DNA from: Gammaproteobacteria bacterium
GTDB taxonomy: Bacteria; Pseudomonadota; Gammaproteobacteria; Chromatiales; Chromatiaceae
DNA: 29,289 bases
NCBI GenBank assembly: GCA_041307205.1
Contig: JBFZDU010000076.1
Location: 1-29,289 of the forward strand
Direction of reading: 5' to 3'
The notes beneath the pieces were generated by a model. That model saw nothing but the letters and a program-made list of their open reading frames with translations, did no database searches and was not told the DNA's origin. Below are positions 11,201 to 17,583 of this stretch, in pieces (position 1 is the first letter of the stretch; every line of letters begins with the position of its first letter). A program made the translations under genes and the position numbers.

Positions 11201-11848
11201 ATGGAGAGTTGGCGATTGGATCCCAGCGAACTGCGGCGGCGGTTCACCCTGCCGGGCACCCCGGCCGACTGGCCGGCCTGGCGCGCCGCAGTCCTGGTGC
11301 CGTTCATCCGGGAGGCGGACGATTGGCACCTGCTGTTTATCCGCCGCGCCGAGCGGGCGGGCGACGAGCACAGCGGCCAGGTGGCTTTCCCGGGCGGGCG
11401 GGCCGAGCCGTGCGACAGCGGTGCCCTGGCCTGCGCCCTGCGCGAGACACACGAGGAGATTGGCTTGCCGGCCAGCTGGGTCGAGGTCCTGGGGTCGCTG
11501 CCCCTGCAGTGCACCCGGGCCGGCTACCCGGTCCAGCCGATCGTCGGCATCGCGCCCTGGCCGGTCGCCTTGCGACCTGACCCGGGCGAGGTGGCGCACT
11601 GCTTCACTGTGCCCCTGGCCTGGCTGGCGGATCCCGCCAACCGCCGTCCGGTGCGTTACCTCGCCGCTGACGGCCGAATCGCCCAGGTGGCCGGTTTTCA
11701 TGAATACCAGGGCGAGCACGTGTGGGGGCTCACCGCCCGCATCGTGCTGGATGTCCTGACCCGCCTCGGCCGGGTGGCGTCGGCAAACGCTTCGCTCGGC
11801 GGGACGATCACGCCGGGCGTGGCAACGGGTGGCGCGGGCCCCGGGTGA
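11201..11848 (+). CDS. Nudix hydrolase, CoA pyrophosphatase (NudL/UPF0035) type, 215 aa
   Basis: AAVLVP, LLFIRRA...HSGQVAFPGG preceding the Nudix box GGRAEPCDSGALACALRETHEEIGL, and VWGLTARI. Start re-assigned to MESWRLDP (ATG 11201). Confidence 0.88.
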   Translation: MESWRLDPSELRRRFTLPGTPADWPAWRAAVLVPFIREADDWHLLFIRRAERAGDEHSGQVAFPGGRAEPCDSGALACALRETHEEIGLPASWVEVLGSLPLQCTRAGYPVQPIVGIAPWPVALRPDPGEVAHCFTVPLAWLADPANRRPVRYLAADGRIAQVAGFHEYQGEHVWGLTARIVLDVLTRLGRVASANASLGGTITPGVATGGAGPG

Positions 11849-11962
11849 AGGTTCCGCCGTCAGGGGAGACCTGCCTGCAGTAGGGAGAGTCGCACAGGCC
11901 GGGATGAGCGCAGCCTGCCCGGCGCCCCTGGACCCATGGCCCCGACCTCATCGCGCAGCGCT

Positions 11963-12850
11963 TTATTCACGGCAATTCTCGTCCCCGTGCGCCTGGCACA
12001 GCGCCATGAAGCGGCGTGCCGCGTTGGACAGGGTGCGGTCGCGATTGCGCACCAGTCCCAGGCGGCGCGACAGGCGCACGCCCTTGATACGTACCGGCAC
12101 TATCCCTTCGTCCAGCAGGGTGGCCGGCAACAGGCTCCAGCCGAGCCCGGTCGCGACCAGCATCTTCAGGGTTTCGAGGTAATTGGTGGACATGGCGACC
12201 TGTAGCTGCAGCCCGGCCGCGGCCACCGCACGCTCCAGGATGCCGCGGGTGTAGGTGCCGGCGCTGGGCAGCACCGCCGGCAGGGCGCAGATCCGCTGCA
12301 ACGGGGTTTGGCCGGTCTGGGCCAGCGGGTGCTCTGGCCCGACCACGAAATGCAGCGGGTCGTTCCAGAGGGTCGCCAGTTCCAGGTTTGCCGGTGCCTC
12401 GGTGGGCAGGGTCACCACGGCCAGTTCCAAGTCGCCCGAGCCGACGGCGGCGCAGGCCGTTTCCGAATCCAGGAATCGCAGGTCGAGCTTCACGTCGGGG
12501 TGCTCGCGGTGAAAAGCGCGCAATACCGGCGGCAGGCGGTGCAGCCCGATATGGTGGCTGGTCCCCAGCGCTAGCGGGCCGCTGACCTGGCCGGCCAGGT
12601 TCGACACCTGACGCTTGAGTTCCGCGGCATCGGCAAGTAGCCGTTCGGCGGCCGGCAACAGGATGCGCCCGGCCTCGGTGAGCGCAATGCGCCGACCGAT
12701 GCGGTCGAACAGCCGGCGGTCCAATTCCTTCTCCAGGCCGGCGATGCGCTTGCTGACCGCCGGCTGGGTGAGGAACAGGCGGGTCGCCGCACCCGAAAAG
12801 GATCCCTGGCGGGCGACTTCGGCGAAGGCTTGCAAGGCATCGAGTTCCAT
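11963..12850 (-). CDS. LysR-type transcriptional regulator, 295 aa, divergent from leuC
   Basis: HTH signature [42 protein letters not shown]..., effector domain with GLGWSLLP. Confidence 0.95.
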
Positions 12851-12857
12851 TTTTTAT

Positions 12858-12872
12858 ATTCTTTGTAGGAAT
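12858..12872. promoter_or_regulatory. LysR-type recognition box ATTC-N7-GAAT
   Basis: Perfect 4-bp dyad with T(12859)-N11-A(12871), 8 nt upstream of the lysR start codon. Confidence 0.7.
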
Positions 12873-12888
12873 GGAAAAAATGAAAAAT

Positions 12889-12907
12889 ATGAATTTGTTT
12901 TATTCAT
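12889..12907. promoter_or_regulatory. Second LysR-type dyad ATGAAT-N7-ATTCAT overlapping the leuC -35
   Basis: Perfect 6-bp inverted repeat, T(12890)-N11-A(12902). Confidence 0.6.
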
Positions 12908-12923
12908 CTTAGCCCACTATCTT
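12895..12923 (+). promoter_or_regulatory. Putative sigma70 promoter of leuC: TTGTTT-17 nt-TATCTT
   Basis: Hexamers at 12895-12900 and 12918-12923 with 17-nt spacing; SD GAGGA at 12936-12940. Confidence 0.55.
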
Positions 12924-12947
12924 TCCCGCATCACCGAGGACAGCGCG

Positions 12948-14351
12948 ATGCAAGCACGAACCCTGTACGACAAGCTCTGGGACGACCACGTGGTGCGCGT
13001 CGATGCCGACGGCACCGCCCTGTTGTATATCGATCGCCAGCTGGTGCACGAGGTCACCTCGCCGCAGGCCTTCGAGGGACTGCGCCTGGCGGGCCGCAAG
13101 CCGTGGCGGACTTCGGCCAACCTGGCCACCGCCGACCACAACGTGCCGACCACCGCGCGGGCCCAGGGCATCACCGACCCGGTGTCGCGGCTGCAGGTCG
13201 AGACCCTGGATCAGAACTGCGCCGAGTTCGGCATTGTCGAGTTCGGGATGAACGACCCACGCCAGGGCATAGTGCACGTGGTCGGTCCGGAGCAGGGCGC
13301 GACCCTGCCAGGCATGACCGTGGTGTGCGGCGACTCGCACACCTCGACCCACGGCGCGCTGGGCGCGCTGGCCTTCGGCATCGGCACCTCGGAGGTGGAG
13401 CACGTGCTGGCCACCCAATGCCTGATCCAGAAGAAGTCCAAGACCATGCGCGTGGTGGTGGACGGCACCGCCGGGCCGGGTGTGACCGCCAAGGACATAG
13501 TGCTCGCCATCATCGGCCGGATCGGCACCGCCGGCGGCAACGGCTATGCGATCGAGTTCAGCGGCCAGGCCATCCGCGACCTCTCGGTGGAAGGGCGGAT
13601 GACCGTGTGCAACATGGCGATCGAGGCCGGGGCACGCGCCGGTTTCGTCGCGGTGGACGATCAGACCATCGATTACGTCAAGGGCCGGCCCTATGCGCCG
13701 GGCCCGCAGCACTGGGAGCAGGCGGTCGCCTACTGGCGCACGCTGCACAGCGACGCGGGTGCCGAGTTCGACCGGGTGGTGGTGCTGGATGCCGCCGCCA
13801 TCGAGCCGCAGGTGACCTGGGGCACCTCCCCCGAGATGGTGGTGGCGGTCGGCGCCAGGGTGCCGGACCCGGCCGCCGAGGCGGACCCGGTCCGGGCCGA
13901 GGGCATGCGCCGCGCCCTGGACTACATGGGCCTGGCCGCCGGGACGCCGATCACGGAGATCGCGGTGGACAAGGTGTTCATCGGCTCCTGTACCAACTCG
14001 CGCATCGAGGACCTGCGCGCCGCCGCCGCGGTGGCCAAGGGGCGGCGGGTGGCGGGCAACGTGAGACTGGCCCTGGTGGTGCCAGGTTCCGGGCTGGTAA
14101 AGGCCCAGGCCGAACGCGAAGGCTTGGACCGCATTTTCATCGCCGCCGGTTTCGAATGGCGTGAGCCGGGCTGTTCCATGTGCCTGGCCATGAATGCCGA
14201 CCGGCTGGAGCCGGGTGAGCGCTGCGCCTCGACGTCCAACCGCAACTTCGAGGGGCGGCAGGGTCAGGGCGGGCGCACCCACCTGGTGAGCCCCGCCATG
14301 GCGGCGGCGGCGGCCGTCGCCGGTCACTTCGTCGACGTGCGCGGGTTGTGA
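12948..14351 (+). CDS. leuC: 3-isopropylmalate dehydratase large subunit, 467 aa
   Basis: [11 protein letters not shown] start with SD GAGGA; [20 protein letters not shown], Fe-S ligands FIGSCTNSR and [23 protein letters not shown]. Confidence 0.98.
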
Positions 14352-14371
14352 CGTTTAGGGGAGCTGGCAAC

Positions 14372-14512
14372 ATGAAACGACTGCTTGCGTTCGGGCTGGC
14401 CCTGGGCATCGCACTGCCTGCCCTGGGTGCGCTGACCGGCTGCGAGACCGTCAAGGGCTTGGGTCGAGATATCGAAAACGCCGGCGAAGCGATTCAGCGA
14501 TCGACGAGGTAA
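14372..14512 (+). CDS. Entericidin A/B family small lipoprotein, 46 aa (not in ORF track)
   Basis: ATG 14372 with SD AGGGGAG 8 nt upstream; translation MKRLLAFGLALGIALPALGALTGCETVKGLGRDIENAGEAIQRSTR*; basic N-region, hydrophobic core, lipobox LTGC, entericidin-like C-x-T-x-x-G-x-G-x-D-I-x-x-x-G-x-A-I. Confidence 0.9.
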   Translation: MKRLLAFGLALGIALPALGALTGCETVKGLGRDIENAGEAIQRSTR

Positions 14513-14515
14513 GGC

Positions 14516-15154
14516 ATGGAACCGTTCAAGATCTTCACCGGCGTGGTGTGTCCGTTGGACCGCTCCAACGTGGACACCGATGCCATCATCCCCAAGCAGT
14601 TCCTGAAGTCGATCCAGCGCACCGGCTTCGGGCCAAACCTGTTCGACGCCTGGCGCTACCTCGATCAGGGCGAGCCGGGCCGGGACAACAGCGGGCGCCC
14701 GCTGAACCCGGATTTCGTCCTGAACGATCCGCGCTATGCCGGGGCGAGCATCCTGCTGGCGCGCGAGAACTTCGGCTGCGGCTCGTCCCGCGAGCACGCG
14801 CCCTGGGCGCTGATCGACTATGGCTTCAAGGTGGTGATCGCGCCGAGCTTTGCCGACATCTTTTTCAATAACAGCTTCAAGAACGGCCTGCTGCCGATCG
14901 TCCTCGACGCGGCGGTGGTGGATGGATTGTTCGCGCGGGCCGACGGGCCGCAGGCGTTGCGGATCGAGGTCGATTTGGCCGCCCAGCAGTTGCGTCCGGC
15001 CGGCGGGACGCCGATCCCGTTCGTCGTCGATCCCTTCCGCAAGCACTGCCTGCTCGAAGGCCTGGACGATATCGGTCTGACGCTGCAGCACGTCGATGAG
15101 ATCCGTGCCTACGAGGCGCAGCGCCGGCAGCGGGCACCCTGGCTGATGTCATGA
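14516..15154 (+). CDS. leuD: 3-isopropylmalate dehydratase small subunit, 212 aa
   Basis: [54 protein letters not shown]. Confidence 0.98.
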
Positions 15155-15158
15155 ACTG

Positions 15159-15323
15159 ACCGCCAGGACGCCAGGCGCCGGCGAAGTCTTGGTCGGGCGC
15201 GCTGCCGGTGCCGATGATGGCCGGTCGACTAACAAATTTTCAACTGACAGGAGGCGGCTGGACGCAGGCAGGTCGGGGTGGTTGTCCGGTGCGACACCCT
15301 GGCGCTGTTGGCGTCCTGGCGGT
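15159..15323. repeat. 165-bp intergenic element bounded by perfect 15-bp inverted repeats
   Basis: ACCGCCAGGACGCCA (15159-15173) and TGGCGTCCTGGCGGT (15309-15323) are exact reverse complements; no target-site duplication seen. Confidence 0.75.
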
Positions 15324-15331
15324 AAAGAACC

Positions 15332-16408
15332 ATGAGCAAACGCATACTGGTGTTGCCGGGTGATGGCATAGGATCCGAGATCGTGGCCGAGGCCCTGAAG
15401 GTGCTGGACGCCTTGCAGGGCACGCACGGCCTGGACCTGGAACTCGACGAGGGCTTGATCGGGGGCGCCGCCTACGACGCGGTCGGCCAGCCGCTGCCCG
15501 AGGCGACCCTGGAGATGGCGCGGGCGGCCGATGCCGTGCTGCTCGGCGCGGTGGGCGGCCCCAAGTGGGAGCCGCTCGATATCTCTGTGCGCCCCGAGAA
15601 AGGCCTGCTCGGCATCCGCAAGGCACTGGGACTGTTCGCCAACCTGCGCCCGGCCATTCTCTACCCGCAACTCGCCGATGCCTCGACGCTCAAGCCCGAG
15701 GTGGTCGCGGGGCTGGACCTGATGATCGTGCGCGAGCTCACCGGCGGCATCTATTTCGGTCAGCCGCGCGGCGTGCGCACCCTGGAGAACGGCGAGCGCG
15801 AAGGCTTCAACACCCTCGTGTACCGCGAATCGGAGATCGAACGCATCGTGCGGGTCGCTTGCGACATCGCCATGCGGCGCGGCCGCAAGCTGTGCTCGGT
15901 GGACAAGGCCAATGTGCTGGAATGCACTGAGCTGTGGCGCGAGGTGACGACCCGCGTGGTCCGCAACGAGTATCCGGATGTTCAGCTCAGTCATATGTAC
16001 GTCGACAATGCCGCGATGCAGCTGGTCAAGTGGCCCAAGCAGTTCGACGTGATGGTCACCACCAACATGTTCGGCGACATCCTGTCCGACTGCGCGGCGA
16101 TGACCACGGGCTCGATCGGCATGCTGCCCTCGGCGTCGCTGAACGCGACGGGGCAGGGCATGTACGAACCGATCCACGGTTCGGCGCCGGATATCGCCGG
16201 TCAGGGCATCGCCAACCCTCTGGCGACCATCCTGTCCGTGGCCATGATGCTGCGCTACAGCCTGGACGAGCCGGCCCTGGCCGGGCGTGTCGAGGCGGCG
16301 GTGAGCCGGGTCCTGGACGACGGCCTGCGCACCCCGGACATCCTGTCGGCGGGGATGACGCGGGTGAACACCGAGCAGATGGGCGACGCGGTAGTCGCGG
16401 CGCTGTAA
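15332..16408 (+). CDS. leuB: 3-isopropylmalate dehydrogenase, 358 aa
   Basis: [62 protein letters not shown]. Confidence 0.98.
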
Positions 16409-16467: not shown

Positions 16468-17583
16468 ATGAAAAGAGTCGGATTTGTCGGTTGGCGCGGT
16501 ATGGTCGGCTCGGTCCTGATGGACCGGATGCGCGAGGAGCAGGATTTTGCGCTCATCGACGAGCCGGTGTTCTTCACCACCTCCCAGGTCGGCGCAGCGG
16601 GGCCGGAGGTCGGCAAAGCCATTCCGCCGTTGCAAGATGCCCGCGATCTCGCCGCGCTGGCGCAGCTGGATGCCATCGTCACCTGCCAGGGCGGCGAGTA
16701 CACCGGCGAGGTGTTCGGGCAGCTGCGCGCGGCCGGCTGGCGGGGTTACTGGATCGATGCCGCATCGACGCTGCGCATGCAGCCGGACGCGACCATCATC
16801 CTTGATCCGGTGAACCTGCCCGTGATCGAGCAGGCACTGGCCGACGGCAAGAAGGACTTCATCGGCGGCAACTGCACCGTCAGCCTGATGCTGATGTCGC
16901 TGGGCGGGCTGTTCAATGCCGGCCTGATCGACTGGATGAGCGCCATGACCTACCAGGCCGCCTCGGGCGCCGGCGCCAAGAACATGCGCGAGTTGCTTAG
17001 CCAGATGGGTTACCTGGAAGGGGTCGTGCACCAGCAGTTGGCCGATCCGGCCTCGGCCATCCTGGACATCGACCGGCGGGTTACCGAGGCGATGCGCGCC
17101 GACGATTTTCCGCATGCCAACTTCGGGGTGCCGCTCGCGGGCAGTCTGATTCCCTGGATCGACCGCCAGCTGGACAACGGCCAAAGCCGCGAAGAATGGA
17201 AGGGCCAAGCCGAAACCAACAAGATCCTCGGCCGTTCAGACCGACCGATTCCGATCGACGGTATCTGCGTGCGGGTTGGCGCCATGCGGTGCCACAGCCA
17301 GGCCCTCACAATCAAATTAAAGAAAGACGTACCCCTGGACGAAATAGAATCCATGCTGGCCTTAGCCAACGATTGGGTGAAGGTAATCCCGAACGATCGG
17401 GAGCTGACTGTGCGCGAACTCACCCCGACGAAGGTCACGGGCACTCTGGCGGTGCCAGTGGGTCGGCTGCGTAAGATGAACCTGGGACCCGAATTCCTGA
17501 CGGCCTTTACCGTGGGCGATCAGCTGCTCTGGGGGGCAGCGGAACCGCTGCGGCGGATGTTGCGAATTCTGTTGGCGGATTGA
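16468..17583 (+). CDS. asd: Aspartate-semialdehyde dehydrogenase (gammaproteobacterial type), 371 aa
   Basis: [21 protein letters not shown] (catalytic Cys), [35 protein letters not shown]. Confidence 0.98.

Follow-up and report, generated by a model that had tools for sequence, protein, structure and literature searches.

Classical LysR-type transcriptional regulators (LTTRs) that activate a target from three sites, such as BenM/benA, CbnR, TrpI/trpBA and IlvY/ilvC, are the closest described systems to the leuC-linked regulator reported here. They share with it a divergently transcribed regulator gene and a symmetric T-N11-A regulatory site (RS) near -65 (the promoter details of BenM, TrpI and IlvY are general background), and their substrate-induced, late-pathway type of target is also proposed for the leuC regulator. 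Further shared features are a weak target promoter and a pair of weaker activation sites that overlap each other, ~10 bp apart, in the -35 region (PMC11495319). The leuC regulator differs from these activators in its half-site (ATTCY), in its target (leuCDB) and in the unusually strong conservation of its activation sites.

A second point of comparison is Escherichia coli LeuO (b0076), which is likewise an LTTR with leucine biosynthesis genes as neighbours and for which 2-isopropylmalate was validated in 2025 as an activating input (PMC12494820), a precedent for a 2-isopropylmalate feed-forward signal. LeuO is pleiotropic and lies beside the attenuator-controlled leuLABCD, whereas the leuC regulator has one genomic site and no attenuator. 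In yeast, alpha-isopropylmalate, the product of a leucine-inhibited isopropylmalate synthase, co-activates the later LEU genes with Leu3p; as Leu3p is an unrelated Zn2Cys6 fungal factor, its likeness to the control proposed for leuC is one of circuit design only.

To our knowledge, outside the enterics and a few Gram-positive regulators, bacterial transcriptional control of leucine synthesis is not well defined, and a full-text literature search found no characterization of a leuC-divergent LTTR. The architecture described below is a textbook one, and the novelty lies in the identity, the breadth and the exact operator of the regulator family.

The leuC gene run and its divergent regulator

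The window is a 29,289-nucleotide stretch of DNA from a Chromatiaceae genome, and its relevant features are collected in Table 1. Downstream of leuC, on the same strand, are an entericidin-like small lipoprotein ORF (ecn), leuD, leuB and asd. The ecn ORF has only weak NCBIfam matches to entericidin A/B (E 5e-6 and 3e-5), both below cut-off. A scan for plus-strand terminators between leuC and asd gave no convincing one, which suggests co-transcription through asd, where the leuC transcription unit may end. The otherwise tight gene run contains a 177-nt gap between leuD and leuB (15155-15331), with one minus-strand promoter-like match (15243-15214).

Table 1. Coordinates of features at the lysR-leuC locus (site centres relative to the predicted leuC start site)
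Feature	Position	Strand	Basis or remark
LysR-type transcriptional regulator gene, 295 aa, divergent from leuC	11963-12850	-	ORF, Pfam
lysR-leuC divergent gap	12851-12947		97 nt, AT-rich, GC 0.35
Predicted regulatory site (RS), ATTCTTTGTAGGAAT	12858-12872		Family consensus ATTCY-N5-RGAAT; centre 12865 = -65
Predicted activation site a (AS-a), ATGAAAAATATGAAT	12880-12894	+	Centre -43, 22 bp from RS centre
Predicted activation site b (AS-b), ATGAATTTGTTTTAT	12889-12903	+	Centre -34, overlaps -35 hexamer
Predicted leuC -35 hexamer, TTGTTT	12895-12900	+	3/6 to consensus, read from sequence
Predicted leuC -10 hexamer, TATCTT	12918-12923	+	17-nt spacer from -35
leuC (3-isopropylmalate dehydratase large subunit)	12948-14351	+	NF004016 816 bits, TIGR00170 791 bits
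ecn (entericidin-like small lipoprotein ORF between leuC and leuD)	14348-14512	+	Start codon uncertain
leuD	14516-15154	+	NF002458 303 bits
leuB	15332-16408	+	TIGR00169 506 bits
asd	16468-17583	+	NF005144 649 bits

The regulator belongs to the LysR-type family, with PF00126 (HTH_1) and PF03466 both found on the 295-residue protein. It gives full-length matches to many NCBIfam LTTR models, all under cut-off, and also matches solved LTTR structures; its named homologs are all labelled just 'LysR family transcriptional regulator'. The recognition helix TQPAVSKRI (residues 28-36) is nearly invariant in the regulator family, in agreement with the invariant operator described below. Additionally, S98-H99-H100 are conserved in the family, with H104 and R105 nearly invariant, and these residues would suit an anionic ligand if they line the effector pocket.

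The protein is distinct from LeuO and IlvY, and also from BenM and CatM. E. coli LeuO aligns with it in BLASTP over the HTH only (36% over 58 aa, E 8e-7); NF007063, which scores 573 bits on LeuO, is absent among the best 25 of the regulator's 53 NCBIfam matches, and LeuO is also absent among its PDB matches at E <= 1e-10. IlvY was rejected on NF008722 (108.3 bits vs a cut-off of 246). BenM and CatM score ~55-59 bits in the PDB search, which places the regulator in a different lineage.

The control region and predicted leuC promoter

The divergent gap, at GC 0.35 in a genome of ~67% GC, is bounded by the lysR start codon (complement of 12848-12850) and the leuC ATG (12948-12950). It holds two inverted repeats, ATTC-N7-GAAT at 12858-12872 (one in the window vs 0.10 expected from shuffles) and ATGAAT-N7-ATTCAT at 12889-12907 (one vs 0.01 expected, allowing up to one mismatch). 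A first-pass annotation had picked out both as LTTR boxes; its coordinates for the dyads, the promoter hexamers and the gap were all borne out on reading the sequence, and both dyads are beyond chance expectation.

Transcription of leuC is predicted to start at ~12930, ~7 nt past the -10 hexamer, giving a leader of ~18 nt that includes a Shine-Dalgarno sequence (GAGGA, 12936-12940) 7 nt upstream of the ATG. The predicted core promoter is weak, with 7 of 12 positions matching consensus and no call in a consensus promoter scan. A TAnnnT hexamer lies within 2 nt of the expected -10 place in 105 of 131 orthologous loci, and the median distance from the -10 to the ATG in the family is 34 nt. The -10-like hexamer of Halomonas is poorer still than that in the window. 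In Halomonas operators, the -35 TTG and the -10-like hexamer (GACACT or AGACTG) are also located 1 nt further upstream relative to 12894-12923 of the window; the 17-nt spacer is preserved and the AT-N11-AT sites are still in register. Minus-strand -10 hexamers considered for the lysR promoter, for example TATTTT (complement of 12884-12889), have no -35 partner or no conserved A as their second base, and none was accepted.

The predicted leader of ~18 nt leaves no room for attenuation, and the searches, in agreement with the first-pass view of leuC, revealed no Rfam leader, terminator or leader peptide at this locus or in orthologous loci. No Rfam leader was found in 11500-14500, even at permissive thresholds, apart from a snoR41 match (24.7 bits vs a gathering score of 40) that was dismissed as chance in AT-rich DNA, and the scan of 12600-13200 gave no terminator-like site. 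The leader peptide and terminator of a leucine-operon attenuator are thus both missing here; in E. coli, in contrast, leuL is annotated before leuA. Among orthologous loci, no Rfam leader was present at gathering thresholds in 20 with long gaps, and the 39 leaders of more than 60 nt contain no Leu-rich mini-ORF. In Halomonas loci such as L079, L081, L072 and L065, the gap between promoter and leuC reaches up to 365 nt, with neither an Rfam match nor a Leu-rich mini-ORF.

A three-site operator of fixed geometry

Comparison of 131 orthologous loci resolves the predicted operator into RS, AS-a and AS-b (Table 1), each a 15-bp AT-N11-AT site, with fixed distances between them. Conservation was assessed from 85 unique aligned operators, ungapped, whose regulators are 39-63% identical. 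The 12 most informative positions of this alignment are exactly the first two and the last two bases of the three sites, and the RS, AS-a and AS-b registers rank 1 to 3 among 62 possible registers. AT-N11-AT is present at RS in 83, at AS-a in 83 and at AS-b in 84 of the 85 operators, and the spacing among the sites is constant in all loci aligned. The family consensus is ATnAAaAanATGAAT for AS-a and ATGAATTtgttTTAT for AS-b, and the two sites are offset by 9 bp. Within AS-a, variation at A12880, T12881, A12883 and A12886 is absent or almost absent; within AS-b, T12900, A12902 and T12903 are invariant. All seven of these columns lie outside the alignment anchors.

These results modify the two-site architecture that was first proposed. 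Both of its sites are present, and a third, AS-a, had been missed. The second dyad (12889-12907) also proved to be shorter than the 19 bp assigned to it: across the 85 operators its left arm and its T-N11-A pair (T12890/A12902) are nearly invariant, but the outer right arm (12904-12907) carries ~0.2 bits per position, without conservation, so that the conserved element is the 15-bp AS-b. The RS edge is 7 nt from the lysR start codon in the window (family median 12 nt).

The canonical 'sliding dimer' geometry of LTTR promoters has been reviewed (PMC11495319), and the predicted arrangement at -65, -43 and -34, counted from the predicted start site at ~12930, matches that model. The locus has a high-symmetry T-N11-A RS near -65 of the predicted start, two lower-symmetry activation sites about one helical turn apart over the -35 hexamer, and a divergent regulator gene with the operator in the shared region. 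The number of complementary outer pairs (mean, out of 5) is 4.3 for RS, 3.1 for AS-a and 3.6 for AS-b; the highest symmetry at RS and lower symmetry at the activation sites are as expected under the LTTR model (PMC11495319). Compensatory changes in the two halves of RS were also sought. Variants with ATAAC/GTTAT exist; however, hybrids (13 loci) outnumber double changes (4 loci) and the loci are related, so these changes are weak evidence and were left out of the argument.

Proposed mechanism and ligand

Taken together, the sequence comparisons indicate that the divergent LTTR is probably a dedicated local activator of leuC-ecn-leuD-leuB(-asd). In the proposed mechanism, the regulator would act as a tetramer whose first dimer is anchored on the symmetric RS (ATTCY-N5-RGAAT) at -65, while the second occupies one of the two overlapping, less symmetric activation sites. 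Without inducer, the second dimer would sit on AS-b (-34) and cover the -35 hexamer; with inducer, it would shift to AS-a (-43), so that RNA polymerase would be freed and recruited at the weak promoter, as in the sliding dimer model. A weak core promoter fits the need for an activator. The same complex probably also represses lysR, as RS abuts the lysR start codon.

The inducer in this mechanism would most likely be the pathway substrate 2-isopropylmalate, the product of the unlinked leuA. We rate substrate induction by this compound slightly short of an even chance; leucine, 2-ketoisocaproate or 3-isopropylmalate fit the genomics equally well as ligand. LeuA is feedback-inhibited by leucine in other bacteria, and if this applies here, the demand for leucine would be reflected in the 2-isopropylmalate level. 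Since the regulator is not LeuO, a shared 2-isopropylmalate ligand would be convergent.

A signal from the end of the pathway, with leucine or 2-ketoisocaproate as an anti-inducer or co-repressor that holds the tetramer on AS-b and keeps the operon off, appears improbable. The overlap of AS-b with the -35 hexamer does provide a possible repressing position, end-product logic is also that of leu attenuation in enterics, where E. coli has an annotated leuL, and the sequence is equally compatible with either ligand. However, the weak core promoter argues that activation is needed, and LTTRs of late biosynthetic steps, among them IlvY, TrpI and the LysR of lysA, are typically substrate-induced. 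Moreover, E. coli LeuO responds to 2-isopropylmalate (PMC12494820), a result in an unrelated LTTR that qualifies the first-pass remark on the lack of an experimentally defined ligand, which holds for the leuC-linked regulator itself.

The operator accompanies the regulator and stays with leuC

Co-occurrence of operator and regulator was examined in 40 relatives and the window's genome with a 23-base operator pattern (up to three mismatches) and the reversed pattern as control. Exactly one operator was found in each of the 16 regulator-positive genomes (16/16) and none in 24 of the 25 regulator-negative genomes, while the reversed pattern gave 0 everywhere; these counts come from related, non-independent genomes, which overstates their statistical weight. 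The sole match in the regulator-negative set, in G031, is at the mismatch limit, and its block 2 is unrecognizable.

Three genomes carry leuC and the regulator gene on separate contigs: G295 (loci L117/L153) and G416 (L128/L154), which are of one genus, and independently G013 (L003/L156), which is from the window's family. The operator is still upstream of leuC in its usual orientation in G295 (40.7 bits) and G416 (49.1 bits), and ~60 nt before the leuC ATG in G013; no operator was found beside the relocated regulator gene in any of the three. Across the family, the operator lies at a constant position from the -35 and -10 hexamers of leuC, but anywhere between -8 and 286 nt from the lysR start.

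The operator is also unique within the genome. In a position weight matrix scan of the 3.56-Mb genome, the full operator scores 83.8 bits at leuC and occurs once, the next best site reaching 18.2 bits; block 2 alone scores 51.8 bits at leuC vs 20.1 for the next best. Scans with the full operator, with box 1 alone or with block 2 alone gave no second site in the genome, hence no sign of a wider regulon. The leuA gene, which is on another contig behind a pssA-like gene, has no operator. The one-to-one co-occurrence, the unlinked cases, the fixed position relative to the promoter and the unique site together point to a local regulator dedicated to the leuC unit and argue against a global AT-binding factor. 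The first-pass proposal of a dedicated LTTR on the leuC promoter is therefore supported by co-occurrence, unlinked loci, operator uniqueness and geometry, and in the orthologous loci motif conservation upstream of leuC extends to all three sites.

The same data bear on the possibility that the LTTR reads only ATTC-N7-GAAT and that the invariant block at 12880-12903 belongs to something else, namely another factor of the Lrp or IHF type, an UP-element or the lysR promoter. This possibility deserves consideration because activation sites of characterized LTTRs tend to be weakly conserved and difficult to recognize (PMC11495319), whereas this block is more conserved than RS; it is also AT-rich, like Lrp, IHF and UP sites, and the lysR promoter must fall somewhere in the gap. 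We nevertheless regard it as very unlikely. The block occurs only in LTTR-bearing genomes, at a fixed 22/31-bp phase from RS, and the bases that are invariant in it follow two AT-N11-AT registers of the same form as RS. It remains with leuC after lysR has moved, and so is not a lysR promoter element, and the many genomic sites expected of a global factor are at odds with the gap between 51.8 and 20.1 bits for block 2. Least probable of all is that the regulator only autoregulates or controls another process, beside a constitutive leuC that adjoins it by an accident of synteny: regulator-negative relatives do make leuC without it, but in three genomes, which represent two families, the operator has stayed with leuC and not with the regulator gene; it also keeps its place relative to the leuC hexamers and not to the lysR start, and has no second copy in the genome.

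Distribution and significance of the regulator family

A single-copy ortholog of the regulator is present in 132 of 400 genomes drawn evenly from the class Gammaproteobacteria, representing 99 of 309 genera, and in 15 of the 40 relatives. As leuC was found in 305 of the 400 class genomes, the regulator-positive genomes correspond to ~43% of the leuC-bearing ones (132 vs 305). The closest named loci are from Sedimenticolaceae, Chromatiales and Solemya-symbiont genomes, followed by Thiothrix, Halomonas/Vreelandella and Nevskiaceae. Among the loci fetched, which are the only ones that the adjacency figures cover, the regulator is divergent from leuC in 90 of 96 and in most of a further 48, whose regulator identity falls as low as 39%; genuinely unlinked regulator genes are among the exceptions.

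Pseudomonas aeruginosa PA3122, presumably divergent from leuC (PA3121) within the same leuC-leuD-leuB-asd-fimV-truA synteny, offers a lead as a candidate Pseudomonas counterpart of the window's regulator. The supplement of PMC8041468 lists it (PA3122/PA14_23730) as a plus-strand LTTR gene, 3504879-3505772, and it is among the most conserved core LTTRs, where it is grouped with uncharacterized ones (PMC10926688). The leu- lesion of strain PAO1161 lies in leuA rather than in the regulator gene.

On a broader reading, which we advance tentatively and with rather less than even confidence, this unnamed LTTR lineage, whose effector domain is unrelated to that of LeuO, would have independently evolved the sensing of 2-isopropylmalate, and would then be the main transcriptional control of late leucine biosynthesis in about one third of Gammaproteobacteria, possibly including Pseudomonas through PA3122, in place of attenuation. 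This would give the feed-forward design at least three origins, those of LeuO and yeast Leu3p being the other two.

The predicted operator is precise and testable, as it consists of three AT-N11-AT sites with invariant positions accompanied by a regulator family signature, and hosts of the regulator include culturable Halomonas and Thiothrix. With sites and protein so strongly conserved, a function established in one species would carry over to thousands of genes whose present label is just 'LysR family transcriptional regulator'. Should the ligand prove to be 2-isopropylmalate, the regulator would in addition supply a ready-made biosensor part for the engineering of branched-chain pathways.

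Related sites were noted at two further loci. At L157 (G004:C44), a partial operator remnant, GGAAT-N7-ATAATAAAGGTGAATTGGAATTAT followed by TATGCT, is located ~100 nt upstream of leuC. G004, analysed with 1500 of its bases withheld, is a relative in the same family and has no detectable regulator; the left half of RS is missing at L157, and a ppdK-like gene lies upstream. The remnant may reflect recent loss of the regulator, and part of the leuC promoter function may accordingly be independent of it. The second site is a better box-1 palindrome than that at leuC, a perfect ATTCC-N5-GGAAT (TATTCCAAAATGGAATA) over the start codon of a gene in G000 (contig C497:3985-4911). This gene encodes a second LysR-family protein (303 aa, 29% identical to the window's regulator), and its site has the same half-site without block 2. 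The palindrome may serve in the autoregulation of a paralog whose DNA specificity is similar.
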